Shown: positions 20,913 to 42,589 of the stretch, piece after piece
Layout: each line of letters begins with the position of its first letter
Position numbering within the stretch: position 1 is the first letter of the stretch
DNA from: an uncultured Oscillospiraceae bacterium
Lineage (GTDB): Bacteria > Bacillota > Clostridia > Oscillospirales > Acutalibacteraceae
Direction of reading: 5' to 3'
Assembly (NCBI GenBank): GCA_905193585.1
Contig: CAJJPG010000001.1
Location: 1-42,589 of the forward strand
DNA length: 42,589 nt
Made by a program: the position numbers and the translations under genes
The notes under the pieces: generated by a model
Database searches by the model: none
What the model was told of the DNA's origin: nothing
The model's input: only the letters and a program-made list of their open reading frames with translations

Positions 20913-23900
20913 TCATTTTCTGTAAGAATAATACTTTTTAAGAGCAATCAAATCCAAAATATCGGTTTTACCGTCATAATTTACATCACTTTCGGGCTTA
21001 AGATACTCCTGCCGCTGCATAAGAAGGCCCTTACGGAGCAAAACCAAATCGTCCGCCATAACGCGTCCATCATAATTAAGGTCTCCAACAAGAGTATCAA
21101 AGTACGCCTTGTTTCCCAAATCCCTTACTCTGAAATCGGAAAATGAAAGACCGGAGCCGTTCACCGCAAATCCCACAAAGCCTTGCCTGTAATTTTTTCC
21201 TAAATAAAACTGAGCTTTAACGCATGCTCCGCCCGAATTTTTCGGAATTACGGTTACTGCAGCTTTATACCCATCTATTCGCACTCTTATAATAAGCTCG
21301 CCCGAATAGGAGGCGGGAATTGCACCGCTCCCGTCCGAAATTTCGGTTTTCCTGCCGCATAAGCAAATTTTACCGTTTTTATATACAGATATGCCGAAAC
21401 CTGTTTCAAGGCAGTTGTAGGGGTTGTTAACTCCGAATAAAACCGTCGGATAGACATTATCTGCTCCGCCGCTGTTTTTGCAGGTCACCTGCATTTCAAA
21501 GCTGCGATATTTGTGCCCGTTATAAAGTGCTGTAACAACAGACGCATCCGCTGCGGCAATTCCCGCCTGAGTCGCATAAAACGCGCTGCTCATATCCGTT
21601 TCAGCCACAGAAGATATGTTTTCACCTTTATATACATTAAATAGCGCGGAGGCCTGTTCAATATTTGTAAGGTCGGAATACACATCGGAAACGGTTTCGC
21701 CGCCGAGATCGGTAATTTTAAAATTCCAGAAACGGCAGTTCTGACCCGTTGAAGCAAAGCCGACATACCCGCCCTTATAGCCGTTGCCCAAATCATATGA
21801 ATAAGAAAATTCCTTTCCCCATTCATACAGCGGTATTACCGTAACAGTCGCCTTGTGACCCGTAACCCTGATTTTAAGCGTATACGGATACCACGCGGCC
21901 TCAAAATATCCGCTTTCGGCGTCTTTGTGTATACTCGGGTCGGACTGAACAACATACTCCTCATTTACAACGCCTTTAAGAAAGGTTCTTCCCTCGTTGT
22001 ATACCCCTGTTGCATAGCCGCCCTGCCGAGCGCCCACCCAACACGTCGGGTTTTGCACGCCGAACACAAGCATTGGCCAGTAATAGCCCACATTGTTTTC
22101 CTTGCCGCTGCAGTTTACCTGCATTTCAAAATTACGGTATTCGCTGCTTTTTAAAAGTGCGGTCGTTATATAATCATCCTGCTGCCCGAAATAATCGGAA
22201 ATAACGGAAGTATCGAATATATGCGTAGCAATACCGTCAGCCAAAGTAAAGCGAGTGCCGAACGCAGTTTTATACAAACCGCTGTTTTTAGCGTCCGTAC
22301 CGCAGTACACATCGAAAATTTCATCGGCATTATCGGCGCTTGTAAAATTATAAGAAATGTCATTTAATACCTTACCGCCCAAATCGGTTACTGTCATTGA
22401 GTAAATTTTGCTCATACCCGTACCGAAAACAAATCCGATATATCCGCCTTTGTATTCCGCACCGAGAGCGCCTAAATCATATTGATATGAATAAGGCTCA
22501 AGTCCGTCATCCTCAACGGTAACCGTAACCTTTTCACCCTCAACACGCACTGTTAGATTGTACCAGGCGCCCCAAAGGCTGTTAAACTTTCCTTGCGCAT
22601 TATAATTTGATAAATCTTCTTTTCGAGTAAATTCACCGTTGAAAAGCCCGTTAAAATAACTGTTACCCTCGTTATAAAGTCCTACCGTATATCCGCCGTC
22701 GCTTGTGTTTATCCAAGCGGTCGGGTCTTGTACCCCGAATATCACACGCGGTAAAACCGCCCAGTTTTTATCAACATTTATCATGCGCACTTTCAACTCA
22801 AAGTCACGCATTTTCTTTGCCTTATACAGTGCCGAGGACACTACCTCGTTTTGCGCCGACCATACATCGCCGCAGCTGCCGAGCTCGGTGATTTTATGTA
22901 TAACGCCGCCCTCTGCGGTTTCAAAGCGATCGTCGAAGTCAGCCTTTGAAAGACCGCTTGAAGATGCGTTTGTGCCGCCGTAAACACTTACGGAATTGCG
23001 TATATCGCTGCCGCATACGGTTACGCTTTCCATTTTTTCCGTATAGGCGTCGTTATAATCGCTGACGCGCGAAAGGTTCGGGATATTATCCGAGGCGGTA
23101 TCCGAATATATGTTTAATTCGTACAGATAAAAGGCATTTTCCTGCGAAGAGGTGAAGCTCTCAAAACGGATATAACGTGCGGATACGCCCGAAAGGTTCA
23201 TATGCTCGATCATTCCGCCGCCGTTTGTTACCGAAGCCGCCGGTTTCCATGAAGTACCGTCAGACGAGATTTTTATTGAATACGATTCAGGACCGATGCC
23301 TGCCCATTTAAGGAACAGGTCGCCTAATTTCTCTTCTTTTCCGAAATCAAGCGTTATAAAACTCTGCACACCTGCGGTTATCCGCGCCGATGTATCGGCA
23401 AAGCCGTCTATCGCAAGCGATACATTTGAAACGGAATTTGAGCTTATTGCAGCCGATACCGCAAGGTCGCGGTTTTTAGCGCCGCTCGCCGTAACCGTAA
23501 TTTTACTCCATTCCCCGTTCTTTAAAATAACGACGGTTCTGAGAGAGCCGTCAATATAATATGACGGTTTTGCCGCAGACAATGAAAGCGTATCGCTTTC
23601 GGTCAATGCTGCTCCGTCAACCGAAACTCCCGACGCGTTAACGCCGTAAAGCATTATTACCCTGTTGTCACCCGATACGTCTGTAGAATAAATTTCAAAG
23701 CTGTTATCGCTTACAGCCGAAACGGTGTAGGTGGTTTTTGTATTTTTATCCGTGTAGAAATCACTGCTGCGCGTTCCGTTCGGCGCTGTCACAAGAAGAG
23801 CTTCCGCCGCAGTTTCATCACTGAACGGGGTTGCAAGAGTAAGCGTTTCCGATGAAACGCTTACGGGGAATGCGCTGCCCGAGCGTATATACAGCGGAGA

Positions 23901-25862
23901 GCGGTTTAAAGGCGCGTCAACCTCTGCTCGTTTACCGCCGCTTATAACCTCGCCCGTCCACAAATCCACCCAATTGCCGTTAGGAAAATATACATCGGCA
24001 TAATACGCGCCCTTTTCGGTAACGGGGCATACCAGTATATCCTCACAGAAGAGGTATTGTTCCGCAGCACTGAAAAGCGCCTTTTGCCCCGGAAATGCTA
24101 CCGGCATGGACTGGCACATAGGTATTCCGCTTTTATTTGCGTAAACCGAACTGCTGTATATTTTTTTCAAAAAATTTTCTCGCAGCCAATAATAACTTTT
24201 AAACGACTCCTCAGCCGTTTTGCCGTAATACCACGGATCACCGTCCCCCGTGCCGTGCAGCCGCATAAGCGGATTCACAGCACCAAACTGCATCCACCGC
24301 ATATAAAGCTCGGGATCCTTTCCCGTAGCCAGACCGCCTATATCGGTTCCCCATGTTGAAAAGCCGCAGCTGCTGAAGGTAAGCAGCGCGTTTACTGCTT
24401 TGCGAAGACCCGAAAAATCCCCTTGCTGATCGCCGCCGAAATTTGCCGCCCATTTTTGGCTGCCGGGTGAGGCACTTCTTGCAAAGAGGGTAAAATTCTC
24501 GCCGCAGGTTTTATTAAAAAGCTCATATAATTGCTGGGTATAGAAGTAAGGATAAAAATTATGCAGCTCTCCCCCGCTCATACCGTTGGCGGCAGTGCTG
24601 TCGGTAGGTACATACTCACAGTAATCCACCATTAAACCGCGTAATCCGTTGGCAATTTTATCCCGCCATACCTCAGAAATTATTTTTGTTGCGTTTTTAT
24701 GTGTAAAGTCAATTACATCCGAGGTGTGATAATCGGTACCGCTTGCATTTTTAAGTCTGGGCAGCGAATACGAGGTAATATCACGGCTTAATTCGGGAGC
24801 AATTTCGGAATAATCGTCAAGCGTTAAAAATGGATTGCACCAACCGAGCATTTTAATATTGTTCGCGTTCAGAAGACTGTAAGCCGCGGGAATATTATCA
24901 AGCGTATTTTCGCCGTACATAGCCGCAAGATTATTTATTCCGAGGGCCTTATAGCCCGCAAGCTTTTCTTTTAAAATATTACAGGCGTTATCCTTCCCGC
25001 CCGATTCCCAAAGCGAAGACGCCGCGCCGCCCCAATAACGGAACGCCCACTTCGGCTGTAAAGCTGGAGTGCCTGTAAGCGCCGAATAAGCCGAAATATT
25101 TTCGGTGGGCGTGCCTGCCCAAAAATACATATCAAAAACGGGACCGTAAAAATGCAGGTCGTATTTATCCGCCTTTGCAGCGCCTATATCCGCCACAGCT
25201 TTATATGATGAGTTAAAATAAAGCATATAGCCCTCGGTGCTGTGAAGAATCGGTATGCTCTTGTATGTGCTTTCCTCATCGCTCCAGCAATCGCTGTTCC
25301 AAAGTGTGTGAACCGTACCGTTAAGGTAAAGCCCGTCAAACAACTCGCCCATGCCGTACATCAGTTCATCGTTTTTTATACTTCCCCGCAGTTCCACTTC
25401 CTTAAAGGCATTTCCCGATTTTTTAAACCGTATCTGCGAACCGGTAATTTCATATACAAGTCCGTCGGAATTATATATTTCCATTCTCCACGGCGTTGTA
25501 TTGCGGTTTATTACAATGCTTATGTCCCTATTATCCGCACCGTAAAACCTCGTGATGCTCTGCGTGGCCTCGCTTTTGATCTTTTGAAGAGAATCGGGAT
25601 AAAAATATCCCTCATAATTTTGTGCATAAAATCTGAACCCGCCGGAAACCGGAAACGAAATTTTCAGCCTTTCAAACGAGCTCCTCACGTAGGTAAGCAA
25701 AGTCACATCGTTGCTGTTTACCTGAACCGCACGCAGGTCGGACGCGTCATACCAATCGTCCGTTGCGGCGGCATTTACCGAAAATGTGCCGAAAAGCATA
25801 CCCGAAATAACAGAAACCGCGAAAAAAACGGAAATGATTTTTTTTATTAAAGAATGCTTCAT
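20913..25862 (-). CDS. Secreted GH31 - F5/8C - 3x ConA-like module - dockerin multidomain glycosidase
   Basis: 1649 aa. The signal peptide ends in SVNAAA. GH31 blocks: WNSDCW, GLMVDYCEYVP, NFGGDQ, WGTDIGG. The F5/8C-like segment runs AIDGFADTS..LDFGKEEKLGDLFLKW..DGTSWKP..ARYIRF. Three ~200-aa repeats of the unassigned module lie at about nt 22370-22990, 21700-22360 and 21110-21700. The C-terminus is a dockerin. Confidence 0.9.
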   Translation of the reverse strand: MKHSLIKKIISVFFAVSVISGMLFGTFSVNAAATDDWYDASDLRAVQVNSNDVTLLTYVRSSFERLKISFPVSGGFRFYAQNYEGYFYPDSLQKIKSEATQSITRFYGADNRDISIVINRNTTPWRMEIYNSDGLVYEITGSQIRFKKSGNAFKEVELRGSIKNDELMYGMGELFDGLYLNGTVHTLWNSDCWSDEESTYKSIPILHSTEGYMLYFNSSYKAVADIGAAKADKYDLHFYGPVFDMYFWAGTPTENISAYSALTGTPALQPKWAFRYWGGAASSLWESGGKDNACNILKEKLAGYKALGINNLAAMYGENTLDNIPAAYSLLNANNIKMLGWCNPFLTLDDYSEIAPELSRDITSYSLPRLKNASGTDYHTSDVIDFTHKNATKIISEVWRDKIANGLRGLMVDYCEYVPTDSTAANGMSGGELHNFYPYFYTQQLYELFNKTCGENFTLFARSASPGSQKWAANFGGDQQGDFSGLRKAVNALLTFSSCGFSTWGTDIGGLATGKDPELYMRWMQFGAVNPLMRLHGTGDGDPWYYGKTAEESFKSYYWLRENFLKKIYSSSVYANKSGIPMCQSMPVAFPGQKALFSAAEQYLFCEDILVCPVTEKGAYYADVYFPNGNWVDLWTGEVISGGKRAEVDAPLNRSPLYIRSGSAFPVSVSSETLTLATPFSDETAAEALLVTAPNGTRSSDFYTDKNTKTTYTVSAVSDNSFEIYSTDVSGDNRVIMLYGVNASGVSVDGAALTESDTLSLSAAKPSYYIDGSLRTVVILKNGEWSKITVTASGAKNRDLAVSAAISSNSVSNVSLAIDGFADTSARITAGVQSFITLDFGKEEKLGDLFLKWAGIGPESYSIKISSDGTSWKPAASVTNGGGMIEHMNLSGVSARYIRFESFTSSQENAFYLYELNIYSDTASDNIPNLSRVSDYNDAYTEKMESVTVCGSDIRNSVSVYGGTNASSSGLSKADFDDRFETAEGGVIHKITELGSCGDVWSAQNEVVSSALYKAKKMRDFELKVRMINVDKNWAVLPRVIFGVQDPTAWINTSDGGYTVGLYNEGNSYFNGLFNGEFTRKEDLSNYNAQGKFNSLWGAWYNLTVRVEGEKVTVTVEDDGLEPYSYQYDLGALGAEYKGGYIGFVFGTGMSKIYSMTVTDLGGKVLNDISYNFTSADNADEIFDVYCGTDAKNSGLYKTAFGTRFTLADGIATHIFDTSVISDYFGQQDDYITTALLKSSEYRNFEMQVNCSGKENNVGYYWPMLVFGVQNPTCWVGARQGGYATGVYNEGRTFLKGVVNEEYVVQSDPSIHKDAESGYFEAAWYPYTLKIRVTGHKATVTVIPLYEWGKEFSYSYDLGNGYKGGYVGFASTGQNCRFWNFKITDLGGETVSDVYSDLTNIEQASALFNVYKGENISSVAETDMSSAFYATQAGIAAADASVVTALYNGHKYRSFEMQVTCKNSGGADNVYPTVLFGVNNPYNCLETGFGISVYKNGKICLCGRKTEISDGSGAIPASYSGELIIRVRIDGYKAAVTVIPKNSGGACVKAQFYLGKNYRQGFVGFAVNGSGLSFSDFRVRDLGNKAYFDTLVGDLNYDGRVMADDLVLLRKGLLMQRQEYLKPESDVNYDGKTDILDLIALKKYYSYRK
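20916..21086 (-). other. Type-I dockerin module (C-terminus of the 1649-aa GH31)
   Basis: Two Ca-binding loop-helix repeats: GDLNYDGRVMADDLVLLRKGLL and SDVNYDGKTDILDLIALKKY. Confidence 0.85.
22415..22990. repeat. Copy 1 of a ~575-bp near-identical dispersed repeat (partner 40481-41056)
   Basis: Constant offset of 18066 nt. By-eye alignment shows only scattered substitutions and a 155-nt perfectly identical core (22636-22790 = 40702-40856). The two +strand shadow ORFs 22703-22983 and 40769-41049 in the track are near-identical for the same reason. Confidence 0.9.
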
Positions 25863-25880
25863 AATATCCTTTTCCTTTAT

Positions 25881-27923
25881 TTATTTTCGGAATAAATTAT
25901 ATTCAAGCTCCCCGAAAAGGTCATACAAATATCCGAACACCTGCGTCCAGATGAGGTAAAGAATGGTAAGGGTAATAACCGCCATTATCATAAAAAATAA
26001 AATTAAGATCACGTTTTTAACCGTTTCTGAGAACGTATAATTATGCGTCTGCATAATTTCCGTAAACAGGAGCACGCCGGTCCATACGATTGCCGTAAAG
26101 CCAATAAGCGTAATTATAAACTGCTCGTTGAGCGAAAGAATATATGAAGCCGCTATGCCGAACGGCGTAAGCAGAATATACGGTGCAAAGGCATAAGCGG
26201 TGGTAATATAAATGTTCTTAAAGCTGCCCTCGCCCTCGCATATTGAGGAGATCATTTTATTCCCGAAAAGCAGTAACGCCAACGGCACAAAGAATATAAG
26301 CGGAATCGAGAAAATCGGGATTGCGCTTATATCCGTTCGGCGAAAAAGGTAACTCGGCAGATACATATCGCAAACGAACACAAAAAATGTAAGCAGATAA
26401 ACTCCCGTGGCCGAATATACGCTGCCGTATTTGCCCGAGCGCAGATAGTAAAAGGTGTCTATCGGGTGGGTCATCATTTTAAGAATTACCGGGCGGCTGC
26501 GCCTGCTTTCGGCTTTTGCAAGTATACCCCTTTTCCGCAGCAAACCAAGCAGACTTGTAATTATTGCCGCGGCGGCAATACCGACTAAAATATACGACAT
26601 ATATTTATTCATCCACTCGTTGCGTATCTCCCAAAATGCCTGCGAGTAATATTTTTTATTTTTGCAAATTTTAAAATGTTCCATTGCCTCGGAATATTCT
26701 CCCTGATAAAGCAATGCCTTTCCGTAGCCCAAATGCGCAATATCCGAGTTTCCGTTAAGCCTTAGAACCGAAGCCCATATTTCCCCGCTGCTTTCGTAAT
26801 TTCCCTCGGAAAGCTCATATATGGCGCGGTGGGTCACAGTAGCAAATTCCGTAGGGAAAAAGGTCTGAACCCGTCCGCGTTCGGAATCGAGAACGTAAAT
26901 AATACCGTTTTCATCCACCGTTATCGCTGCGGCGGAGGTGAAAAGTCCCATTCTGTCCGATGATACCGCGCGCCCGCCGAATGAGAAAAGCAGATTTCCG
27001 GCTTTGTCATATTCATATATAAGCCCGGTAGCCGTAAGGGCATAAATATTATCGTATATTCCGTAAGCAACGTCGGTAAAATTCCATTCCTCGCTCATAG
27101 AAGAACCTGCGGACATTATATTTACGCCGTTCATATTATGCAGCTTTAAATAATTCTGCATTTTTGAAGAATCGGATTTCTGACTATCCGCCTGGGTAAC
27201 GCTTAAAACCGTGTCCTTATCGGCAAGATCGATGTTTTCTACGGAGCGCGGGAAACGGCTCAGCTGCTGATCCTTTTGTTCATCGGAAAGTATCAGCTCC
27301 TGAACAGTCTCCAAAAATGTAAGGTCACGCTTATTCGCCGCAAAAAAGCCCTGAAATACTCCGTTTCGGTCAAACTGCATAAGTCCCTGGTATGAGCCCT
27401 GCCCCACGGCAAATATATTTCCCTGGGAGGTCACTATAACATTTTTGGGCTGATAAACCGTTTGCTCGTTGAAAAGATAGCTGTCGGGTCGGGTAATGCG
27501 TCCCAACTCCGCGCCTTCTGCGGAAAAATGAACTATAGCCGGAATATCGGGATCGGCAACATAGAGCGACAGGTCGTCACAAACAAATATACCGGTAGGA
27601 TTTATAAGGATTCCCTCGCCTATGACCGTCTGTGTCTCGTGAGATAAATCACGCTTTATAACTCTGCCGTTGCCGCTGTCGGCAACATAAAGACAGCCCT
27701 TTTTGTAAAATACGTCCTTCGGCTTTGAAAGCCCCTCATTTCTGAAATACACCGAGCCTGAGCGGTAAGCGTCCTGTGTTCTTATCCAGTTGTCATCTAC
27801 CGAAAGCGTATATGTATAGGTTGTGTTTTCGGCAGCAAACACCGTTAAGCCTGCGGAGCAGAAAACAGATAAAGAAAGTAAAGTAATAATAATTGCGACA
27901 GCTTTTTTCACCATGTTCCGCAT
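25881..27923 (-). CDS. Membrane protein: signal peptide - NHL-type beta-propeller - TPR-like linker - C-terminal Yip1-like polytopic domain
   Basis: 680 aa. There are five or more NHL-like blades, e.g. CLYVADSGNGRVIK, LYVADPDIPAIVHF, NIFAVGQGSYQGLMQF and IIYVLDSERGRVQTF. A TPR-like stretch follows (GYGKALLYQGEYSEAMEHF). After it come about five hydrophobic helices. The gene sits directly after two permease genes. Confidence 0.75.
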   Translation of the reverse strand: MRNMVKKAVAIIITLLSLSVFCSAGLTVFAAENTTYTYTLSVDDNWIRTQDAYRSGSVYFRNEGLSKPKDVFYKKGCLYVADSGNGRVIKRDLSHETQTVIGEGILINPTGIFVCDDLSLYVADPDIPAIVHFSAEGAELGRITRPDSYLFNEQTVYQPKNVIVTSQGNIFAVGQGSYQGLMQFDRNGVFQGFFAANKRDLTFLETVQELILSDEQKDQQLSRFPRSVENIDLADKDTVLSVTQADSQKSDSSKMQNYLKLHNMNGVNIMSAGSSMSEEWNFTDVAYGIYDNIYALTATGLIYEYDKAGNLLFSFGGRAVSSDRMGLFTSAAAITVDENGIIYVLDSERGRVQTFFPTEFATVTHRAIYELSEGNYESSGEIWASVLRLNGNSDIAHLGYGKALLYQGEYSEAMEHFKICKNKKYYSQAFWEIRNEWMNKYMSYILVGIAAAAIITSLLGLLRKRGILAKAESRRSRPVILKMMTHPIDTFYYLRSGKYGSVYSATGVYLLTFFVFVCDMYLPSYLFRRTDISAIPIFSIPLIFFVPLALLLFGNKMISSICEGEGSFKNIYITTAYAFAPYILLTPFGIAASYILSLNEQFIITLIGFTAIVWTGVLLFTEIMQTHNYTFSETVKNVILILFFMIMAVITLTILYLIWTQVFGYLYDLFGELEYNLFRK

Positions 27924-27930
27924 AGCTCCT

Positions 27931-28821: not shown

Positions 28822-28841
28822 CGTATTGCAGTCCTTTCCTC

Positions 28842-29741: not shown

Positions 29742-29749
29742 TGCCCTCT

Positions 29750-32629
29750 TTATTTATTCGCATACAGTATTTTATCGGAATTTGTGGTGTAATCCTTTAT
29801 CTTTGTCCCGCGTTCGTCACAGTAGCCGAATTCCAGCAGCTTACGCAGAATTTCGCGGTCTGACGATACCACCGCATTATCCACCGCGTCGGAAAATTCC
29901 ATACCGTTTACAACTATGTTCGTCCAAATATTGCTTATATCGCGCTCTATCATATAATTGGCGGGATGATACATAACCTCTTTCTGCCATTCCCACTGCT
30001 TAAGGATCACTTTCTTGTGGTTTTCTGGGAGCGGCAGCTCCGCAAACGCCTTTAAATTGGCGGTAGACCAGAAATATTCAGGTCCGTAAGTACCTGTCAG
30101 CAGCTGTGCATATTCCGACTGAATATCATCGGAAAGCCACCATTTAAGGAATTTCCACGCCATATCGCTTTTCTTAGTGCTTTTAAATATCATACAGGCG
30201 GTGCTGTCAGCCGATTGCCAACGCACCGTTTCACCGTTTTTATCAGTCCCGGGAGTAAGCGCAATGTCCCACAGCCCGGATAACTCTGGAGCTGCGTAGG
30301 TAAGCTGCAAATATAATCCCATATCGCCTATCGCAATAGGAATTTCGCCGTATCTGAAGCTGTTATAAAGGCTCGGAACAGATTGCTGCATACCGTAAAC
30401 CGTGTAAAGCTCCGTCATTTCGTGAAAAGCTTTTTTGCACTCCGCACTCCTGTAATCAACCGAAAATCCGTCATCCGAAAGTATTTTAGCTCCGTTTTGG
30501 AAAATAAACGGCGTCGTTACGGGAAAAGATTTATAGCCTGCCGAGCCCGACAGCGGAATATAAAAATTCATCTGATGCCGCAGCAGGGTAGGCATTAGGT
30601 ATTTAACATCCTCCCATGTATCGGGAACACCTATTCCGAGAGACTCAAAAATATCCTTTCTGTAAAAAAGCACATTGAAATTCTGCGTTTCAATTACGCC
30701 GTAGACGCCGTCATTATAGCATACAGGGGTCAAAGCCTCGGGATTGTAGCAGGATGTATAAAAGGAAAGAAAATCTTCGTATTCCAAAAGGTTTTTCGCC
30801 GAATTTCTGATAGCAAAGTTAAAGGGTGTTGAGTAGCCCACTCCCATTGCAATATCGGGATTTGTACCCGACGCGTTTGCAAGTATAAGCTTTTGCTCGC
30901 TCGGCATTATGGAAAGCCTTATGTTCGTTCTGTTTTCCTTATTAAAGGTATCGTCCAGCAAGCTCTGCATGGTTTCCGTGTACTGAACCGAGCGGTTTAC
31001 CCAAACCTCAAGCTCGCCGTCGGGCTCGGCGGAATACGTGTTGTAGTCCTTTGCGAAAGTTCCGAAAAATTCGGATATACTCTCAAAAAGCACCGTAAAA
31101 AAGCCCGCTTTGCCCGACGGGAGCGTTTTTCCCGAATTAAAATAAATTCTGTCAATACTGAGCGGCGAGGAAATAAGCTGCGAAAGCACATCGCCCAAAA
31201 ATTTGGTCACCGAATTATCACCCACATTTAAAAGCTCAAGCTTATTAGGCAAAACACGGGGCTTTGCAAGGAGCTTTTTAAGCAGCGAAGAGGCATATTC
31301 AAGCGAATCGGCAAAAGTTGCGTCAGAGCCTGACAAATCGCAAAGCTTTTTGTAAACGGAATCTATTCTTTCCGAGGCTGCTTTAAGCCGCGGAATTGCT
31401 TCCGGCATTACAACGTCCATATCCCACGTACGGTTGGCGTCAACCGAGCCCGCCGAAAGTTTTTTCAGATCCATTCCTACAGAATTGATTTCACTCATTA
31501 CCGATATTATTTCATCATAAATTTCCCTGAAACCGCCTAATGTGACCTGCATTGAAATTGTATGTGAACCCTCTTCAAGATAAATTTCAAACGGTTTACC
31601 GTCTTTACCGCAGAGGGTATAATTTTCGTATTCATTTGTTCCCGTCACGGGAAATGTAACCGATTCAAACTCGGCAAACGGCGTTATGCCGTCAATTTCG
31701 ATTTTTCTGAATACCGGTTTACCGGCATTGCTTGACTGGGAACAGCGGAACGCAAGCTCGTAAAGCCCGCTCTTTTCCACCGAAAAATTCCAAAGCACCT
31801 TTTGCCCCGCCGACGACCAAGAGCCGCCGTCAAGTAACGCCACGCATTTTTTACCGCTTTTGTGCGGTGTAACGGCGGCGTTTTTTGAAAGGCCGCTCCT
31901 GATATAGGATTCCGATTTAAGCGTATGGTTTTCGCCCTCAACCGTTAAAAGATTGTTTACTCCCTGTTTTTCGGAAATACTTTTCTTGTATTCCTCATAT
32001 GTATCCGTATCGCGCGGCTTTATAAAGCTTATCCCTTTAATTTCAATTTCACCGGACAGAGCCTTAAGCACAAAGCTGTTGTTTCCGCTCTCAAGTTTTA
32101 CTGTTAACCTATCTGCACCTATATCGCCCGAATCAATTAAAAAATCGCTTATGTATTCCGAAACGCATATCTGGCGCGGGACGATTTCATTGCCGTTCAT
32201 ATCCTGCTCGTAGGTTTTCGTCTCGTCACTCCAGAGAACAGGCAGACCTACCGTTAACGTCTTGTTATTAAACGAAAGCTCGTATTGCGGTTCTCTGTTC
32301 TCTTTTCCGCTTATGCGGTAATTTACCAAAATATTATATTCTCCGCTTTTAAAAGCCTCAGCGGAAAAAGCGACCGTCCCGCCCTCTGCCGCCGTAAAAG
32401 GCAGCGTGACGGTACGGCTGCCGTTCACTTCCGTTATTGCAGCCGAAATATCTCCCGAATTTTCATTCAAAGCGGTCGCGTTCCACCCCTTAAGAGAAGC
32501 AGCGGTATAAGACGCTTTGCCTGCCGATTCAACCGTTTTCTGCACTGCCGCCGAAAAGGGCGCGCTGAATGTTGAGGTAAATAAAGCTATTACCGTTATT
32601 GCAGTACAGAGCTTGATTCTTTTCATCAT
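29750..32629 (-). CDS. Giant (~960-aa) extracellular solute-binding protein with N-terminal CBM-like beta-sandwich modules
   Basis: Signal/anchor MKRIKLCTAITVIALFTSTFSAPFSAA. The first ~400 aa contain two jelly-roll-like segments (GEYNILVNYRISG.., GLYELAFRCSQSS..FRKIEIDG). The C-terminal ~430 aa look like a family-1 sugar SBP (ELEVWVNRS.., GTNPDIAMGV, NVLFYRKDIFESLGI.VPDTWEDV). The track ORF extends to 32641; the ATG at 32629/32626 has a GGTGA RBS. Confidence 0.8.
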   Translation of the reverse strand: MMKRIKLCTAITVIALFTSTFSAPFSAAVQKTVESAGKASYTAASLKGWNATALNENSGDISAAITEVNGSRTVTLPFTAAEGGTVAFSAEAFKSGEYNILVNYRISGKENREPQYELSFNNKTLTVGLPVLWSDETKTYEQDMNGNEIVPRQICVSEYISDFLIDSGDIGADRLTVKLESGNNSFVLKALSGEIEIKGISFIKPRDTDTYEEYKKSISEKQGVNNLLTVEGENHTLKSESYIRSGLSKNAAVTPHKSGKKCVALLDGGSWSSAGQKVLWNFSVEKSGLYELAFRCSQSSNAGKPVFRKIEIDGITPFAEFESVTFPVTGTNEYENYTLCGKDGKPFEIYLEEGSHTISMQVTLGGFREIYDEIISVMSEINSVGMDLKKLSAGSVDANRTWDMDVVMPEAIPRLKAASERIDSVYKKLCDLSGSDATFADSLEYASSLLKKLLAKPRVLPNKLELLNVGDNSVTKFLGDVLSQLISSPLSIDRIYFNSGKTLPSGKAGFFTVLFESISEFFGTFAKDYNTYSAEPDGELEVWVNRSVQYTETMQSLLDDTFNKENRTNIRLSIMPSEQKLILANASGTNPDIAMGVGYSTPFNFAIRNSAKNLLEYEDFLSFYTSCYNPEALTPVCYNDGVYGVIETQNFNVLFYRKDIFESLGIGVPDTWEDVKYLMPTLLRHQMNFYIPLSGSAGYKSFPVTTPFIFQNGAKILSDDGFSVDYRSAECKKAFHEMTELYTVYGMQQSVPSLYNSFRYGEIPIAIGDMGLYLQLTYAAPELSGLWDIALTPGTDKNGETVRWQSADSTACMIFKSTKKSDMAWKFLKWWLSDDIQSEYAQLLTGTYGPEYFWSTANLKAFAELPLPENHKKVILKQWEWQKEVMYHPANYMIERDISNIWTNIVVNGMEFSDAVDNAVVSSDREILRKLLEFGYCDERGTKIKDYTTNSDKILYANK

Positions 32630-32713
32630 AATAATCACCATAGCATTTAGAATTAAAGATATAAAATCAAAAGGTTATAATCGGCAGACAGACATTTTTA
32701 ATGCGTTAAGCCC

Positions 32714-34333: not shown

Positions 34334-34337
34334 TTGG

Positions 34338-37300
34338 TTACCTCTCTTTTCTTTTTTTGAAAACCTTGAAATACCCCACTGCGGCAAGATAAGCCATGCT
34401 TACCGTTAAGGTGAAAATTGAGATCAGGCGGTATTTCCCGTCTTCGCCCGTTTTCGGATAATTTACGCCGTTTCCGTTTGAATACGTATACGTGTCCTCT
34501 GCGTCCGCCTCTTTTAAGACCGAATGCAAAGCGGGGTAATTATCGGGAGAAAATCCCTCGGTGTTATATTCCTCCGTATCGGGCAGAGCGGTTATTGAAA
34601 GATTGTCGAAATACGCTGCGTTCATATTTGTGGTTATGCTGATATATCCGCCGCCCCTGTATTCATCGGGAATAATGGTTTTCAATACCGGCTCGCGGCC
34701 ATCCACCGACATTTCGGCTATGCCGTCCTTAACCGTCAGCTTCATTGTATGTCGTCCCGTATATTCAAAATTTTCATACGGCGTGGTATGCCCCGCAGAT
34801 ACATCGTTGCCCCAGAAAAGCGGGCGTCCCTCCTGTTCAAGGTAAGCGAGTATTCCGCTGCCCTCGTCAAGCGGGTATGCGGCGGGATCGTCAATACCGA
34901 AGCCTATCATTGCCCAGTAATAGGTGTTTGAGGCACGCTGAAAATCAACCGTGAGCTCGAAATTTTCGTATTTGCGGCCCTTGTAAACAAGCGAGGACAT
35001 TTCCGTTTTTGCCTTTTCCCAGCTCCATTCGCCGCTTGATTTCACCGAAAATTTATTGTCTATTCGGTGCAGTCGCCCGTCCGCTATCTCCCACGTTTTC
35101 ATAGAATCGCTCTTTTTAAGCGCGTCTGAAAATATACTTGAATAATAGCATTCAAAATTTTCGGTTATCTCGCTTTTTCCGTTAAAATCAAACTTAACGG
35201 TGTTTTCGTCTATCAAATCCTTATCCCCGGTAACGTTTATAACTCCCTTAAGGGTCACGCCGTTACCGTAAAGCTTAATATGATTTTCAAGCAACGAATC
35301 GGGAAGTATGCCGGTCACGGTATATTTTCCGCGTTTATAGCGGTTGTAGCCGTCAAAATCCCACTCTATCGGGGCTGTGTAAATCACTCCGTCGGCAGCC
35401 TTTACCCTGACCGTTTTCGGTAAACCGCTTATTTCCGATGTATCCGTTCCGACATCGGCGTTTATCTCCGGGCTTTCGGAGATTATTTTTTCTGCCGTAA
35501 CTTTGGTTACGTCGTTATTGTTTAGCGGACGTATTTTCAAATTTTTAAAGCAGCAGATATTAGCCTTGCCCACAAGAGCTATGTATCCGTCCATATCGGT
35601 ATCGCCGAGCTCGCAGCTGATAGGCGCGGGCAGCGACTCTCCGTCAGCGCCCGTAACCGACATTGTTACGGTATTGTATTCCACGGTAAGTTTCAGGGTA
35701 TGAACTCCCGTGCGGTTGTAACCCGCCGCAGGTTCTTTTCCCACTATGTTTGTATATTTGCCATTGATTTGTCCCAAAAACATCGGCGTTCCCTCAGCCA
35801 CGGGGAAAACAGCCAGTCCGCCGCCGCTCTTTGTAATATATTCGGCGGGATTTTTAATTCCGAATACCACCATAGGGTAATTATATTCGCCCACCTCATC
35901 GCGCTGAATATCTACCGTCAGCTCAAAGTTATGGTATTTCCTTTTTGCAAAAAGCAGGGATGAGAGATATTTTTCGCCCCATTTCATATCGCCGACCGTT
36001 TCCTTAGTACGTGCAATTCCCTTTTCGGAAATTTCCCAAAACGGCGAATATGAATTTTGAATTTCAAGTCCCCTTTCCGCATCATCGGCATAGTAGCAGT
36101 CAAACCCCGCCGTATCGTCGCTTGATGTAAGCGGCAGGCTTATCTCGTCGTCCTTGCCGTAAACCGTAATCCGTACTGCCGCGGTTTTTCCCTGACATTC
36201 CGCCGTAATAACGGCGCTGCCCTTTTTCCTTGCCGAAACAACTCCGTTTTTAACATCGGCTACAGCTGAATCCGACGTACCCCATTTTACGGTGTCGTCC
36301 CCCGTTATTTTGGCAGGACTGAAACACGGGTAATATGTTTCGGTCTCACCCTCGAATATATAATCGGATTCCCGACCGAGGGTAAAGCTTTCAAGAGGAC
36401 CCGGCAGCACTATTCTTTTTGCTATTTCCGCGGCTATAAAACCGTATCCGCTCTTTGTAGGATGAACCCCGTCGGCATACCACAAGGAATGTCCCTCTGT
36501 CAGCGAGTAAATGTCTATTACATCACACCCGGCAGCTTTCGCAATTTTCCTTTGCAGCGGCACTATTTCGTTCTTGACCGTCTCTGCCGAAATATCGTAA
36601 TTATCTGTTGCAACCGCAGGCGATAAGGCGACATATACCGTCGGGTTTGAAGGCAGCGCCTTATACTCCGCAATAAGCGCCTTGTAATCATCGGCATAGG
36701 AATCGTTCAAGCTCCAGTTTTGAGGCTTAGAATCGTTTGTGCCGAGCATTATTACAACTATATTCGGTGCAAAAGCCTTGCTTGCGGTGAAAGCACTTGA
36801 CGAGGTATAAGGATTATCCCCCGATTTTAAAAGGGTCGCCCCGTCAACACCGAAATTTTCAATATCGTATTTTCCGCCCAAAAGCTTACGCATTTGCCAC
36901 GGATAGCCCTGCTCTGTACCGGAGGCGTAGGTTATGCTGTCTCCCACACAGGCAACCCTTACAGGCGACAGATCTTCCTTGCCCTTAACCCTGACCTTTA
37001 TTTCAGCCGTACTGTCGCCTATTATTACGCGCGAATGTTTATCATAATCAATCAGCGGCGAAAGCGAGCCGATAAGCGTATATTCCCCGCGCACAAAACG
37101 GTTATAATTCGCTCTGCTCCACTCAACGTTCAGGGTATATTCCTCATTATCGCTTCCTACAATCTTAACGCTTTCGGGCAATTTAAGGTCTTCCGGCAAA
37201 ACGCCCGTTTCAACCTCAACCGCCGTCGGAGCTTTTACCCTCGCAATTGAAACGTTTTTCAGTTCTCCTTCCACTTCCTTAACAGAAAGTCTTGATAATC

Positions 37301-38684
37301 CGCATACATTTGCCATTCCCACAAGGGCTATATAACCCCCTGTGTAGTCCTCGGGCAAAATTTCTACCAGCTGCTCCGGATTGTTTCCGTCGCCCGATAT
37401 TTTAACGGTCACTCTGCCGTATCTTACGGATATTGTCATTGTATGTACGGTTTCGCGGCTATACCCTGCAGGTGCCTGAGTCACAGCCGAAAAATCATTA
37501 CCGCGAACACATAGCGCGCCTTCGGCGGTTGCATAGCAGAAGTATCCGCCGTCCTTATAATATGCAAAATTACCGGGGTTCTTTATTCCGAAAATAACAC
37601 CCGGATACATATAACCGTAGCCGCCGCTCTCTTTCCTCTGCATATTAACGGTCAGCTCAAAATATTTATACTGCTTAACATTATAAACCAATGTTGATGT
37701 GTAAAGATCTTCGTCATATTCGACCCTCGGCAGAGTATCCGGGTTTCTCCAAATGCTTCCGTCCTCCTTATGCTGCCAATAGTCCGTGTAATTTTCCACG
37801 AGCTTCATTCCGTTTTTAATGCTCTCGGCATAGTAGCAATCGAATTTCTTCATATCCTCGGAATTTGAAAGCCCGATATATTCCTTAATCGGCATAGGAA
37901 CAACATCTCCGCCCAAATCGGTAACACTGAAATTGCGGAACTGGCAACCGCCCGTTCCTGCAGCAAATCCTATTTTGCCGCCGTAATAATCGTCGCCCAA
38001 GGTAAACTGTTCGGAATATGCGGCTTTAGTGCCCTGCTTTACCGTTACGGTAACAGCCTTACCCATCACTCTTACCGTAACCTTTGACCATAATGCAAGA
38101 CTGCCGTATTCACCGGTTTTCGTATGGTCGGTATTGTCGCTTTGGGTTTTGTACTCTCCGTCGGTAATGCCCTTTAAATTTATAATACCCTCGTTATAAA
38201 GCCACACCGAGTAGCCACCGCCCTCGGCATTGACCCACGACATAGGGTCCTGAACTCCGAAAATCAGCTTTGGCAGCACCTGCCAGTTTGCAGGCACAAC
38301 CCTGAACTCCGCAGTCATTTCAAAATTGCGGTAGGCTTGTTTTCTGTAAAGAGCCGTGGTAACAACATCGTCCTGTGCGTCCCAAATTTTGTAATCGCCC
38401 GATGTGTGATTTCCGGTAGAGGTGCAGGTATGCTTTACTATTCGGCTTACGACCGAAAAGTATTTTTCGGGCTCTGCTGCCGAAAGACCTGCGGTAACGG
38501 CACTCTCGCCGTGATAAACATTAAAATTCTCGGCAAGCACAGCGGCGTCCTTAAAGACGATCGAATCTGTTGTGCTGTCGGAATCAGCTAAAGAATATAT
38601 TGAGCAGGTTCCGCATATAACCGCAATTATTGTAAAAACGGTCAAAACGGCATTGATAAGCTCAGCCCGTTTAACTTTTATCAT
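34338..38684 (-). CDS. Wall-anchored multidomain surface esterase: 2x ConA-like module - Big_4-like Ig - SGNH esterase - Big_2-like Ig - ConA-like - Big_4-like - ConA-like - sorting signal
   Basis: SGNH blocks VACVGDSITYASG, FGVDGA, LGTNDS and DGVHPT lie at about nt 36400-36960. The Big_2-like segment is VKWGTSDSAVADVKNGVVSARKKGSAVITAE. Four copies of the unassigned module lie at about 37910-38555, 37260-37850, 35525-36125 and 34585-35175. The start is reassigned to the ATG at 38684 (MIKVKRAELINAVLTVFTIIAVICG, RBS GAGAGGA). The track ATG at 38717 lies inside a 12-bp stem-loop. Confidence 0.85.
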   Translation of the reverse strand: MIKVKRAELINAVLTVFTIIAVICGTCSIYSLADSDSTTDSIVFKDAAVLAENFNVYHGESAVTAGLSAAEPEKYFSVVSRIVKHTCTSTGNHTSGDYKIWDAQDDVVTTALYRKQAYRNFEMTAEFRVVPANWQVLPKLIFGVQDPMSWVNAEGGGYSVWLYNEGIINLKGITDGEYKTQSDNTDHTKTGEYGSLALWSKVTVRVMGKAVTVTVKQGTKAAYSEQFTLGDDYYGGKIGFAAGTGGCQFRNFSVTDLGGDVVPMPIKEYIGLSNSEDMKKFDCYYAESIKNGMKLVENYTDYWQHKEDGSIWRNPDTLPRVEYDEDLYTSTLVYNVKQYKYFELTVNMQRKESGGYGYMYPGVIFGIKNPGNFAYYKDGGYFCYATAEGALCVRGNDFSAVTQAPAGYSRETVHTMTISVRYGRVTVKISGDGNNPEQLVEILPEDYTGGYIALVGMANVCGLSRLSVKEVEGELKNVSIARVKAPTAVEVETGVLPEDLKLPESVKIVGSDNEEYTLNVEWSRANYNRFVRGEYTLIGSLSPLIDYDKHSRVIIGDSTAEIKVRVKGKEDLSPVRVACVGDSITYASGTEQGYPWQMRKLLGGKYDIENFGVDGATLLKSGDNPYTSSSAFTASKAFAPNIVVIMLGTNDSKPQNWSLNDSYADDYKALIAEYKALPSNPTVYVALSPAVATDNYDISAETVKNEIVPLQRKIAKAAGCDVIDIYSLTEGHSLWYADGVHPTKSGYGFIAAEIAKRIVLPGPLESFTLGRESDYIFEGETETYYPCFSPAKITGDDTVKWGTSDSAVADVKNGVVSARKKGSAVITAECQGKTAAVRITVYGKDDEISLPLTSSDDTAGFDCYYADDAERGLEIQNSYSPFWEISEKGIARTKETVGDMKWGEKYLSSLLFAKRKYHNFELTVDIQRDEVGEYNYPMVVFGIKNPAEYITKSGGGLAVFPVAEGTPMFLGQINGKYTNIVGKEPAAGYNRTGVHTLKLTVEYNTVTMSVTGADGESLPAPISCELGDTDMDGYIALVGKANICCFKNLKIRPLNNNDVTKVTAEKIISESPEINADVGTDTSEISGLPKTVRVKAADGVIYTAPIEWDFDGYNRYKRGKYTVTGILPDSLLENHIKLYGNGVTLKGVINVTGDKDLIDENTVKFDFNGKSEITENFECYYSSIFSDALKKSDSMKTWEIADGRLHRIDNKFSVKSSGEWSWEKAKTEMSSLVYKGRKYENFELTVDFQRASNTYYWAMIGFGIDDPAAYPLDEGSGILAYLEQEGRPLFWGNDVSAGHTTPYENFEYTGRHTMKLTVKDGIAEMSVDGREPVLKTIIPDEYRGGGYISITTNMNAAYFDNLSITALPDTEEYNTEGFSPDNYPALHSVLKEADAEDTYTYSNGNGVNYPKTGEDGKYRLISIFTLTVSMAYLAAVGYFKVFKKRKER
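34341..34460 (-). other. Sortase-type cell-wall sorting signal with non-canonical YPKTG motif
   Basis: The C-terminal 40 aa read YPKTG-EDGKYR-LISIFTLTVSMAYLAAVGYF-KVFKKRKER. That is a pentapeptide, a hydrophobic span and a basic tail. Confidence 0.6.
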
Positions 38685-38699
38685 CCTACCAATCCTCTC

Positions 38700-38736
38700 T
38701 GACGGAAGCCGATACATAAAGCAGCGGCTTCCGTCA
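38700..38736 (-). promoter_or_regulatory. Strong intercistronic stem-loop with no U-tract, between the two surface-esterase genes
   Basis: Perfect 12-bp inverted repeat TGACGGAAGCCG (38700-38711) / CGGCTTCCGTCA (38725-38736) with a 13-nt loop. It lies 18 nt after the upstream stop and abuts the SD (GAGAGGA) of the downstream gene. Confidence 0.6.
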
Positions 38737-38753
38737 ATATGCTTAGATTAAAA

Positions 38754-41219
38754 TTACGCTTCCGCGATGATTGCTTTTTTGAGCTTTATAAAGTCTAAAA
38801 TATTTACAGACTTATCATCATTCATATCAAGGTCAACACCCTCGCCCGCTGTAGCCGTGCCGAGAAGAATCTTTTTCATTGCAGTAAGGTCAACAGCGTT
38901 AAGTGACCAATTATCGTCAGTATCGCCCTTTATGGCTTTACCGAAAACAGCTTTTGCAAATGCTCTTGCCATAAGCGCGTAACCGCCTGCATTCGGGTGA
39001 ACTCCGTCCGCAAACCAGTTTCCGTGATTTTCGGTAAATGAGTACATATCTACCGTTTTAATGCCAAGCTCTGCGGCTATCTCCCTTTGCTTTGCCGTAA
39101 CAGCCGATATATTGCTTTCTATGTAGCAGGCCGGTGAAATTGCCAAATAAACCTCAGGTTTGTTTTCAAGATACATATACTCCTCTATCAGAGAAGTATA
39201 GTCCGATACGAACTGCTCCTCATTCCAATAGTCGTTCCATGAATCGTTTGTGCCGAGCATCATTATAACGATATCGGGATTGCTTGCAAGGCTGTTTGTA
39301 TACGGTGTACTTCCCACATAAGGTGATTTATCGCTTTGTGCGGTAGCGCCGCAAACCCCGAAATTCATAACCTCGTACCGTGCGCCCAGCAGCTTTTGCA
39401 AAACAGCAGGATATGATTCGCCGACCTCCGCCTTATCACCATAGGTAATGCTGTCGCCCACGCAGGCAACGCGTATCGGGGTAACCTCCACCCCGGTTAC
39501 GGTAACGGTAAGAGTTGCCGTTTGTCCGTTCGGAACTACTCTTTTGCCTTCGGCATTTATTATCTTACCGAGTGTTCCGGTAAAAGTATAATCGCCGGGA
39601 ACAAAGCGGCTGTAGGTCGATGTATCCCATACAACGGGTAAATCGTAGCTGTTTCCGTCGTCGCATAAAACCGATACGGTAGCCGGAAGATTTAACTCCT
39701 CCGCAAAAGTGAGCACAGGTACGCTTAACGCGTTGGGGGTATTGACCGCAATGGCTTTAACAGAGGTATCTGCCTCGCCGCCGAGGTCGGTAACGGAAAA
39801 TCTTATAAATTTCGACTCGCCGGGGCCTGCCGCAAAGCCTACATAACCGCCGTTATAATTCTCCCCGAGATCGAATGAATAAGAATAAGTATTCGGGTCT
39901 GCCCAAAAGTACGTTTTAACCGTAACGGTTGCAACTCCGTTTTCAACACGAACCTTTAAAGTAACAAAGTCATAGCTTAGTCTCTGAAAAGACGCATGGC
40001 TGTCTAAATTATCGTCAAGATTTACGGGTTCGCCGTCAACAATTCCCGCAAAATTGATTACACCCTCATTATAAAGCTGGACCAAATATCCGCCGTCCTC
40101 GCGGTTTACCCAGCTTAAAGGGTTTGTCGCGCCGAATACAAGCTTCGGCAATCTGTCCCATCCTGCACTTCTAAGCTGTACCGACATTTCAAAATTGCGG
40201 TAGGTGCTGTTTTTAACCAACGCCTTTGTTATCGTGTTGTTCACGTTATTCCAACGCTCTTCACCGCTGTACGGGTCATATGCCGATGTGAGAAAACCGT
40301 TTTCATCAAAATTGAAATAATTATCAAATTCGGCTGCCGTGAAATTATCACTCAACGCTTGGTCGCTGTGATAAATGTCAAACTTCCCGAGTATATCGTC
40401 TTTGTTCATTAACTGGCTTTTAACATCGTTAAGTACCTCGCCGCCGAGATCCGTCACGCTCATACTGATAATTTTGCTCACACCCGTACCGAAAACAAAT
40501 CCGATATATCCGCCTCTGTATTCGGCGCCGAGAGCACCTAAATCGTATTCATACGAATACGGCTCAAGTCCGTCATCCTCAACGGTAACCGTAACCTTTT
40601 CACCCTGAACACGCACTGTTAGATTGTACCATGCGTCCCAAAGTTTTTTAAACTTTCCTTGCGCATTGTAATTTGATAAATCTTCTTTTCGAGTAAATTC
40701 GCCGTTGAAAAGCCCGTTAAAATAACTGTTACCCTCGTTATAAAGTCCTACCGTATATCCGCCGTCGCTTGTGTTTATCCAAGCGGTCGGGTCTTGTACC
40801 CCGAATATCACACGCGGTAAAACCGCCCAGTTTTTATCAACATTTATCATGCGCACCTTCAGCTCAAAGTCGCGCATTTTCTTCGCCTTATACAGTGCCG
40901 AGGACACTACCTCGTTTTGCGCCGACCATACATCGACGCAGCCGCCGAGCTCGGTGATTTTATGTATAACGCCGCCCTCGGTAGTTTCAAAGCGTTCGTC
41001 GAAATTAGCCTTTGAAAGACCGCTTGAAGAAGCGCTTGCGCTGCCGTAAACATTGACAGCGTCCTTAATTTCGGCTGCCGAAATTGTAACAGAAGCATTT
41101 TCCCCCTCGGCTGTTGCTGTTAAAAGTCCGCCCACAGGCAATATTGCCGCTGTAAGCGCTAAAGAAAGTGTAAACGAAAGCGCTGTTTTCAAAATCCCCC
41201 GATTCAATATTTTTTTCAT
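38754..41219 (-). CDS. Secreted multidomain esterase: 2x ConA-like module - Big_4-like Ig - SGNH esterase - dockerin
   Basis: 821 aa. The signal peptide ends in ATAEG. The modules lie at about 40430-41060 and 39780-40400. The Ig-like segment is LPATVSVLCDDGNSYDLPVVWD. SGNH blocks: RVACVGDSITYG, FGVCGA, LGTNDS, DGVHPN. RBS GGAGGG sits 7 nt upstream of the ATG. Confidence 0.9.
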   Translation of the reverse strand: MKKILNRGILKTALSFTLSLALTAAILPVGGLLTATAEGENASVTISAAEIKDAVNVYGSASASSSGLSKANFDERFETTEGGVIHKITELGGCVDVWSAQNEVVSSALYKAKKMRDFELKVRMINVDKNWAVLPRVIFGVQDPTAWINTSDGGYTVGLYNEGNSYFNGLFNGEFTRKEDLSNYNAQGKFKKLWDAWYNLTVRVQGEKVTVTVEDDGLEPYSYEYDLGALGAEYRGGYIGFVFGTGVSKIISMSVTDLGGEVLNDVKSQLMNKDDILGKFDIYHSDQALSDNFTAAEFDNYFNFDENGFLTSAYDPYSGEERWNNVNNTITKALVKNSTYRNFEMSVQLRSAGWDRLPKLVFGATNPLSWVNREDGGYLVQLYNEGVINFAGIVDGEPVNLDDNLDSHASFQRLSYDFVTLKVRVENGVATVTVKTYFWADPNTYSYSFDLGENYNGGYVGFAAGPGESKFIRFSVTDLGGEADTSVKAIAVNTPNALSVPVLTFAEELNLPATVSVLCDDGNSYDLPVVWDTSTYSRFVPGDYTFTGTLGKIINAEGKRVVPNGQTATLTVTVTGVEVTPIRVACVGDSITYGDKAEVGESYPAVLQKLLGARYEVMNFGVCGATAQSDKSPYVGSTPYTNSLASNPDIVIMMLGTNDSWNDYWNEEQFVSDYTSLIEEYMYLENKPEVYLAISPACYIESNISAVTAKQREIAAELGIKTVDMYSFTENHGNWFADGVHPNAGGYALMARAFAKAVFGKAIKGDTDDNWSLNAVDLTAMKKILLGTATAGEGVDLDMNDDKSVNILDFIKLKKAIIAEA
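38757..38927 (-). other. Type-I dockerin module (C-terminus of the 821-aa esterase)
   Basis: Two loop-helix repeats: GDTDDNWSLNAVDLTAMKKILLG and DLDMNDDKSVNILDFIKLKKAI. It is clearly diverged from the GH31 dockerin. Confidence 0.8.
40481..41056. repeat. Copy 2 of the ~575-bp near-identical dispersed repeat (partner 22415-22990)
   Basis: See copy 1. It encodes the first ConA-like module of the 821-aa esterase. By eye, that module differs from module 1 of the GH31 at only ~20 residue positions. Confidence 0.9.
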
Positions 41220-42379: not shown

Positions 42380-42589
42380 CTTAATCACGCGCTTAAACAG
42401 GCTTACAGGCAGCAAAGGGAAAACCGCTATTGCTATGCCGAATGCCGTGCTGATTATTGAAAGAATAACCTGTTTAAAGCTGTATCGTCAGGTTTTTCAA
42501 GGATTAAAAGCACATTGTTATTCTCAAAGGCTTTCTTTATTTTTCGCTCTTCTTTTTTCGTGTGTCTGTTCGGATTGTGATGCGGTCGG

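Follow-up and report, generated by a model that had tools for sequence, protein, structure and literature searches.

What are the repeats that make up much of three surface proteins encoded on contig CAJJPG010000001.1 of an uncultured Oscillospiraceae bacterium (assembly GCA_905193585.1)? The contig was analyzed from position 1 to position 42,589, and this whole stretch is referred to as the window. A preliminary description of this DNA had reported nine copies of an unassigned module of ~200 aa, presumed to be a concanavalin A (ConA)-like β-sandwich, on a protein of glycoside hydrolase family 31 (GH31) and on two esterases, and had considered it a candidate new family of carbohydrate-binding modules (CBMs). 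From the analysis presented here, the modules probably are non-catalytic CBMs, which form a divergent, CBM66-like lineage of the DUF1080/CBM66 superfamily. This reading is grounded in the homology and fold of the modules, in the residues of related enzymes that they have lost, in their shuffling between proteins, and in their occurrence on extracellular carbohydrate-active enzymes (CAZymes); that the modules bind a glycan, and which glycan this might be, is what we infer within it.

The whole window was translated in six frames and scanned against a family profile of 62 sequences. Exactly nine module domains were found (independent E-values between 9e-31 and 6e-61), and no tenth was present anywhere in the window; this is the same set, confined to the same three proteins, that had been named before. 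The proteins are here called A, B, and C. All three carry signal peptides and surface anchors, and between approximately one-third and one-half of each is blank in current annotation; in protein A, ~630 residues between the F5/8 type C domain and the dockerin are without Pfam assignment. The bit scores given for the modules are those of the profile scan.

20913–25862, minus strand: protein A, 1649 aa, with signal peptide, GH31, F5/8 type C, modules A1–A3, and type I dockerin (Pfam)
23874–25514, minus strand: GH31 (N, TIM, and C domains) of protein A (Pfam)
23121–23444, minus strand: F5/8 type C (CBM32-like) domain of protein A (Pfam)
22374–23009, minus strand: module A1, subtype 1 (aa 958–1169 of protein A; 174 bits)
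21699–22337, minus strand: module A2 of protein A, subtype 1 (186 bits)
21111–21662, minus strand: module A3 of protein A, subtype 1 (100 bits)
20931–21086, minus strand: type I dockerin of protein A (Pfam)
34338–38717, minus strand: protein B, 1459 aa, with signal peptide/transmembrane segment, B1, B2, Big_4, GDSL esterase, B3, Big_4, B4, and sortase-type signal
37908–38543, minus strand: module B1 of protein B, subtype 1 (173 bits; AlphaFold2 model)
37266–37865, minus strand: module B2 of protein B, subtype 2, with FDCYY opening (163 bits)
36423–36956, minus strand: GDSL esterase of protein B (Pfam)
35517–36125, minus strand: module B3 of protein B, subtype 2 (178 bits)
35304–35447, minus strand: Big_4 of protein B, between B3 and B4 (Pfam)
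34578–35177, minus strand: module B4 of protein B, subtype 2 (198 bits; AlphaFold2 model)
34341–34457, minus strand: sortase-type wall-sorting signal of protein B (YPKTGE, transmembrane segment, KKRKER)
38754–41219, minus strand: protein C, 821 aa, with signal peptide, C1, C2, Big_4, GDSL esterase, and type I dockerin
40440–41078, minus strand: module C1 of protein C, subtype 1 (family profile scan)
39777–40403, minus strand: module C2 of protein C, subtype 1 (162 bits)
39570–39701, minus strand: Big_4 of protein C (Pfam)
38958–39470, minus strand: GDSL esterase of protein C (Pfam)
38769–38930, minus strand: type I dockerin of protein C (Pfam)

For eight of the nine copies, the coordinates given earlier agreed with the profile envelopes within ~20 nt; for A3, the profile envelope stops ~40 nt before the upper bound given earlier. 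A3 is also the most degenerate copy, with part of the N-terminal region deleted and with GGY and NEG changed to TGF and KNG, respectively. Pfam agreed with the earlier calls for the neighboring domains (GH31, F5/8 type C, GDSL esterase, Big_4, and dockerin), and the C-terminus of protein B, where YPKTGE precedes a hydrophobic stretch and KKRKER, corroborated its proposed anchoring to the wall.

The preliminary description had derived the kinship of the nine copies from an ordered string of motifs said to be common to all of them. Most copies carry the motifs, which were present in four to eight of them each: Y-[RKHE]-x-F-E-[LM] in seven (A1 and C1 carry MRDFEL instead), [IVL][IVG]FG[VIA]x[ND]P in eight, GGY[IV][GAS][FLI] in six, YNEG in five, and [VI]TDLGG in four. 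Irrespective of such motifs, a profile made exclusively from subtype 2 detected all six subtype 1 copies at 53–101 bits, while the top score among 450 shuffled controls was 7.9 bits. Because one subtype recovers the other this far above shuffled sequences, the nine modules are, judged by their profile scores, homologous and not the product of a chance string of motifs. The division into two subtypes was sustained as well, as identity was higher within them (27–42% in subtype 1 and 27–36% in subtype 2) than between them (16–25%). The opening F[DE]CYY was limited to B2, B3, and B4, which places this subtype in the wall-anchored esterase alone, as had been noted before.

Against isolated copies, PF06439 (DUF1080) did not reach its gathering cut-off of 26.8 bits: five copies scored 19.5, 19.0, 12.1, 21.8, and 21.2 bits, and the other four of the nine gave no match in the Pfam scan. 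B4 (21.8 bits) was the copy nearest to canonical DUF1080. On the whole of protein B, PF06439 summed to 36.8 bits, and the B4 orthologue in a related genome (P0010) reached 56.5 bits. The public precomputed Pfam record is blank for protein C and holds one “faint” match for protein B; some copies and relatives also gave weak Pfam matches to GH59_C and Laminin_G. Thus, “unassigned” was an apt description insofar as every isolated copy stays under the Pfam cut-off. It did not hold at the level of family profiles, because these match solved DUF1080 proteins. Searched against the sequences of the PDB, the nine-copy profile returned nothing meaningful, and deeper profiles of 62 and 34 sequences were needed; these matched 4jqt (E 7e-7 and 1.3e-6), 3imm (E 2.6e-5), and 8v31/AL2 (E 3.5e-5), the last over columns 24–200 of 201, that is, over the full length. 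Further DUF1080 proteins matched in this way were 9fbe, 3s5q, 3nmb, 3u1x, 8rr2, 3osd/BT2157, 8tda, and 3h3l. Alignment with BT2157 and AL2 by hhalign gave a probability of 94.4% and an E-value of 8.9e-8 over 165 columns. With profile E-values down to 7e-7 and this hhalign result, the resemblance to DUF1080 (3-keto-disaccharide hydrolases) suspected before was confirmed. Modules and DUF1080 proteins also have scaffold motifs in common (W-x-x-x-dG, Y-x-N-F-E-L, G-G-Y-I-x-L, and F-x-N-L-x-I-x-x-L).

To collect relatives of the module, 1.84 billion representative proteins were searched exhaustively with HMMER; 318 proteins passed a threshold of E ≤ 1e-3, and 74 passed E ≤ 1e-30. Large proteins with 2–10 tandem modules account for nearly all of them, and the very large canonical DUF1080 family was not drawn in by the family profile. 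Among 75 relatives scanned with Pfam, 60 matched PF06439 (E ≤ 1e-4; best E 6e-49); Big_4 was found in 34, a GDSL esterase in 16, a dockerin in 8, and GH31 in 3, and the partners of the module in relatives also include carbohydrate esterase family 2 (CE2) and SASA domains. Searching a word-indexed protein collection with module alignments returned 7, then 3 matches, mostly fragments. The carrier proteins are common in metagenome assemblies, where they fall into 90%-identity clusters of 575–1413 sequences, none of which is named. Because of the profile matches to PDB sequences, the hhalign result, and the PF06439 matches of the relatives, the modules are, by sequence, a remote branch of DUF1080.

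The relatives bear signal peptides and end in sortase-like signals, in dockerins, or in a third recurring C-terminal motif. This motif, approximately GW(Q/I/V)P(T/S/H)xxDxxF(D/E/S)(F/W), closes relatives that have neither dockerin nor sortase signal (P0017, P0019, P0021, P0029, P0036, P0048, P0051, P0053, P0054, P0059, and P0060) and may be an anchoring or secretion tag.

In the literature, DUF1080 and CBM66 are treated as the same domain under different names, with its non-catalytic members classified as CBM66 in the CAZy database (Elcheninov et al., PMC5673643). [quoted passage not shown] By contrast, DUF1080 proteins that consist of a single domain are enzymes, namely, 3-keto-glycoside lyase/hydratases (bioRxiv 10.1101/2024.03.25.586180), and a member from Thermogutta was reported to be an endo-xanthanase (PMC10881899). 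The family thus comprises catalytic as well as binding members, which raises the question of where the modules belong.

AlphaFold2 models were made for one copy per subtype from alignments that comprised 62 and 34 members of the family. The models of B1 (subtype 1; predicted local distance difference test [pLDDT] 94.5, predicted template modeling score [pTM] 0.91) and B4 (subtype 2; pLDDT 91.4, pTM 0.89) are all-β, with 14–15 strands and short N-terminal helices. When both were compared with the PDB by Foldseek, every match at E < 1e-4 was a ConA-like protein, the classes being polysaccharide lyases of family 7 (PL7), L-type lectins, GH16, the thrombospondin C-terminal domain, DUF1080 proteins, and CBM66. 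These confident models thus predict a ConA-like jelly roll of two β-sheets, in accordance with the β-sandwich that had been proposed. For both subtypes, the best superposition was that with BsCBM66 (4azz_A), which had the lowest root mean square deviation (rmsd) among the top Foldseek hits: E 4.5e-6, a target-normalized TM score (TMt) of 0.73, and an rmsd of 3.5 Å for B1, and E 1.1e-6, a query-normalized TM score (TMq) of 0.61, a TMt of 0.73, and an rmsd of 3.6 Å for B4. A large share of the 30 top matches of B4 were DUF1080 crystal structures. No close structural neighbor was found in the PDB, the highest TMq being 0.62. Given the place of the modules as a remote PF06439 branch and BsCBM66 as their best superposition, calling them a candidate new carbohydrate-binding family was an overstatement, although there was no established CBM family that all nine copies matched with confidence either.

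In BT2, eight residues conserved across 3183 homologues form the metal/active site (E103, N134, E164, Q166, Y190, K245, Q273, and H275; bioRxiv 10.1101/2024.03.25.586180). The sequences of BT2 and AL2 were rebuilt from HMMER alignments, in which the numbering fits all eight residues, and aligned to the family profile; hhalign gave the same register. By both alignments, none of the eight is conserved across the nine copies. The position of E164 is Gly in all nine; that of Q273 is A, V, or T; that of H275 is G, T, N, M, or K; that of N134 is W, V, D, G, E, Y, or R; and those of E103 and Q166 are variable. Y190 and K245 reside in two finger insertions, which the modules lack. Among 167 domains of the family, the positions conserved in more than 80% are exclusively Gly, aromatic, or hydrophobic. 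The most conserved polar residue is the Glu of FEL (72%), which is also found in BT2, but outside its active site. In enzymes, a catalytic constellation should persist throughout the family; as this is not the case in the module family, the modules are apparently non-catalytic.

A hint of what they do instead comes from a stretch that two of the carriers share. A1 and C1 are 91% identical as proteins, and 22364–22986 and 40429–41052 are 92.5% identical as DNA over 624 nt, despite the fact that the genes of proteins A and C are otherwise unrelated outside this stretch. In a relative, the modules of which are ~60% identical to those described here, the counterparts of A1 and C1 are 76.6% alike mutually and only 58–62% alike to the present ones. 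As the pair is mutually closest both here and in this relative, the pattern indicates that one module has repeatedly been converted or replaced between the GH31 and the esterase genes. Such sharing shows the module to act as an autonomous unit that can be transferred, and it would be accounted for most simply by a common target of glycosidase and esterase. Targeting to the substrate, as assumed in the preliminary description, is the function best supported by the analysis.

Several observations weigh against a CBM66-like, non-catalytic role. Ligand-binding residues could not be identified. BsCBM66 (chains 4azz, 4b1l, and 4b1m) was absent from the matches of both family profiles at E ≤ 10, and the link to CBM66 comes from structure, PF06439, and one literature statement. 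The mapping near E164 is uncertain, as a strand of BT2 corresponds there to a loop (YNEG) of the modules. Subtype 2 retains a conserved Arg (≥90%), a His-His motif, and a Tyr, and with true enzymes among the characterized DUF1080 proteins, catalysis via other residues is conceivable. Finally, ~50 of the 75 relatives are without a recognized catalytic domain, so that a role beyond the targeting of enzymes is possible.

How far the modules should be set apart from CBM66 is the first matter on which other readings diverge. Tentatively, and with rather less conviction than for the CBM66-like reading itself, they could be seen together with the ~300 representative relatives as a distinct lineage of glycan-binding repeats in secreted bacterial proteins anchored to the surface, among them proteins of uncultured human-gut Ruminococcaceae, with a specificity unlike that of CBM66 and deserving its own CBM family or subfamily. 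If so, the ligand might be, for example, a side-chain epitope that is acetylated, fucosylated, or both, and the enzyme-free giants with 5–10 copies would be multivalent surface glycan-capture proteins. The stricter version, a new CBM family that binds carbohydrate (e.g., such an epitope) but is too far from CBM66 to be merged with it, appears unlikely. It would account for the failure of all nine copies to reach the PF06439 cut-off (at best 21.8 versus 26.8 bits, and four without a match) and of either profile to find BsCBM66, for structural neighbors all having TMq ≤ 0.62, and for the compactness of the set, that is, 318 proteins with an architecture of their own (up to ~10 tandem copies) whose profile leaves canonical DUF1080 aside. 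A separate family is difficult to delimit, however, when the DUF1080 matches by profile–profile and profile–PDB comparison are significant and full-length, when 80% of the relatives match PF06439, some of them with E-values of 1e-41 to 1e-49, such that the set grades continuously into DUF1080/CBM66, and when the orthologue of B4 itself scores 56.5 bits.

The other readings assign the modules a role other than that of a CBM. That the modules are lyases, hydratases, or endo-glycanases acting via another active site, like BT2157/AL2, the Thermogutta xanthanase, or PL7, is the least probable of those considered, although the single-domain members of DUF1080 that have been characterized are enzymes (bioRxiv 10.1101/2024.03.25.586180; PMC10881899), PL7 lyases are among the top Foldseek matches, many relatives have no other catalytic domain, and subtype 2 keeps its Arg, His-His motif, and Tyr. 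The His and Arg of subtype 2 are missing from subtype 1, no polar residue is more than 80% conserved family-wide, none of the eight BT2 residues is conserved across the nine copies, and the two finger insertions bearing two of them are absent; moreover, identities of 16–42% between tandem copies and attachment to bona fide enzymes are what is typically seen in CBMs, not in catalytic domains. Only slightly less improbable is a part without any carbohydrate, be it as spacers or stalks or as modules for protein binding or adhesion. Many relatives do resemble adhesins, with arrays of up to ~10 modules, Big_4 domains, and anchors but no enzyme, and the ConA-like clan includes folds with protein ligands, such as LamG and the thrombospondin C-terminal domain. 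Yet, the steady partners of the modules are carbohydrate esterases and GH31, their nearest characterized non-catalytic relatives bind glycans (PMC11002231), and a near-identical module on two enzymes of the same pathway fits a shared substrate better than a spacer.

If the modules are CBM66-like binding modules, as seems probable, the epitopes that they bind would be side chains or termini of the acetylated and probably fucose-containing glycan degraded by the locus, in analogy to the known CBM66 modules on levan termini and xanthan side chains. Several weak sites together might raise affinity by avidity, and multiple modules could hold enzyme, cell, and substrate together, with the GH31 glycosidase (protein A) tethered to the cell via its dockerin, one GDSL acetyl-esterase (protein B) via sortase, and the other (protein C) likewise bearing a dockerin.

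Like BsCBM66 of the Bacillus subtilis levanase SacC and CsCBM66 of the Cohnella xanthanase, the modules are compact, finger-less ConA-like jelly rolls attached to extracellular CAZymes of Bacillota, and CBM66 is non-catalytic. They differ from CBM66 in sequence (8–15% identity) and length (~200–215 versus ~160 aa), in an added N-terminal strand and short helices (F-[DN]-x-Y-Y ...), in copy number (2–4 per protein here and up to ~10 in relatives), and in their partners, which are GH31 and GDSL esterases here and GH32, GH43, GH9, or polysaccharide lyases (PL) for CBM66. With the DUF1080 lyase/hydratases (BT2/AL2), they share homology over the whole domain and the scaffold motifs W..dG, Y.NFEL, GyIgL, and F.N..I..L; those enzymes, however, are single-domain periplasmic or secreted proteins, whereas the modules are tandem appendages of other enzymes. 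LamG (Laminin_G_2/3), the C-terminal lectin domain of GH59, VIP36-type L-lectins, and PL7 lyases have the same jelly roll, but this likeness is one of fold only (Foldseek E 1e-8 to 1e-5, TMq ≤ 0.62, identity 9–15%), and family-level sequence matches between these modules of the ConA-like clan and those described here were not found.

Once recognized as CBM66/DUF1080-like, the modules offer an experimental approach to the substrate of a large GH31/GDSL/fucose locus and widen the reach of CBM66 beyond its two characterized members. The Pfam name of PF06439, “3-keto-disaccharide hydrolase,” would mislabel the modules as enzymes if it were transferred to them. The points of interest are their ligand, the large enzyme-free relatives with multiple copies, and the conversion of modules between enzymes, with A1/C1 as a natural example of how enzymes of the same pathway are kept on one target.

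Which substrate this might be can be approached from the remainder of the locus. Of the 22 substantial genes in the window, 21 are on the minus strand; the exception is a divergent AraC-type regulator (41540–42379). The genomes closest to the locus are uncultured human-gut Ruminococcaceae metagenome-assembled genomes (MAGs), and the same locus in the same gene order is present in four related human-gut MAGs: UMGS1222 (95% identity), UMGS1148, UMGS974, and a Hadza MAG. No paralogous loci were found in a genome search with a single protein as the query. The genes of the locus include the following.

241–2734: L-fucose isomerase and class II aldolase genes (fucose catabolism)
3010–3675, 9678–10778, 10759–11388, 34338–38717, and 38754–41219: five GDSL-type esterase genes in 42 kb
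6018–7958, minus strand: GHL6-family protein with weak N-terminal similarity to the GH151-type α-L-fucosidase 6tvk (E 2e-6)
18577–20850, minus strand: secreted DUF5696 protein of 757 aa (DUF5696 at 542 bits over nearly the full length)
25881–27923, minus strand: membrane protein with NHL repeats and Yip1, between the ABC transporter and GH31 genes
29750–32641, minus strand: solute-binding protein of 963 aa with an N-terminal extension of ~550 aa without family match

There are three GH31 genes in all, one of the other two encoding a protein with F5/8 type C domain and signal peptide, and the locus also encodes a GH38, a GH3 resembling BglX phosphorylase or NagZ, and two ABC importers. The similarity of the GHL6 protein to GH151 fits the L-fucose isomerase and aldolase genes. 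The nearest PDB entries of the GH31 part of protein A are the α-xylosidase YicI and Lmo2446, and with these as nearest structures, a mucin-acting α-N-acetylgalactosaminidase was rejected for it. The nearest NCBIfam model of the protein B esterase is the acetylxylan esterase AxeA1 (159 bits, which is under the cut-off of the model). Two of the five GDSL esterases are extracellular and three apparently cytoplasmic; for a single locus, this is an unusually large capacity for de-esterification. Taken together, the gene content suggests a glycan that is acetylated, probably bears fucose, and contains α-linked xylose or glucose. One candidate would be fucosylated xyloglucan, without any substrate being claimed here; an endo-acting backbone enzyme was not found in the window. 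A tie to the xanthan locus of Ruminococcaceae R.UCG13 was rejected because GH5, PL8, GH88, and GH94 are missing here, and the unknown domains of the R.UCG13 xanthan enzyme being CBM11-like further weighs against it.

The DUF5696 gene is flanked by an ABC permease gene and by the gene of protein A. Its product, for which neither a sequence relative in the PDB nor a mention in the literature searched was found, is a candidate glycan-active enzyme. At positions 34338–34387, the reading frame of protein B overlaps by 50 nt with that listed for a solute-binding protein of 557 aa (TTG start at 34387), which probably starts at a downstream ATG (MKTAAIK...).

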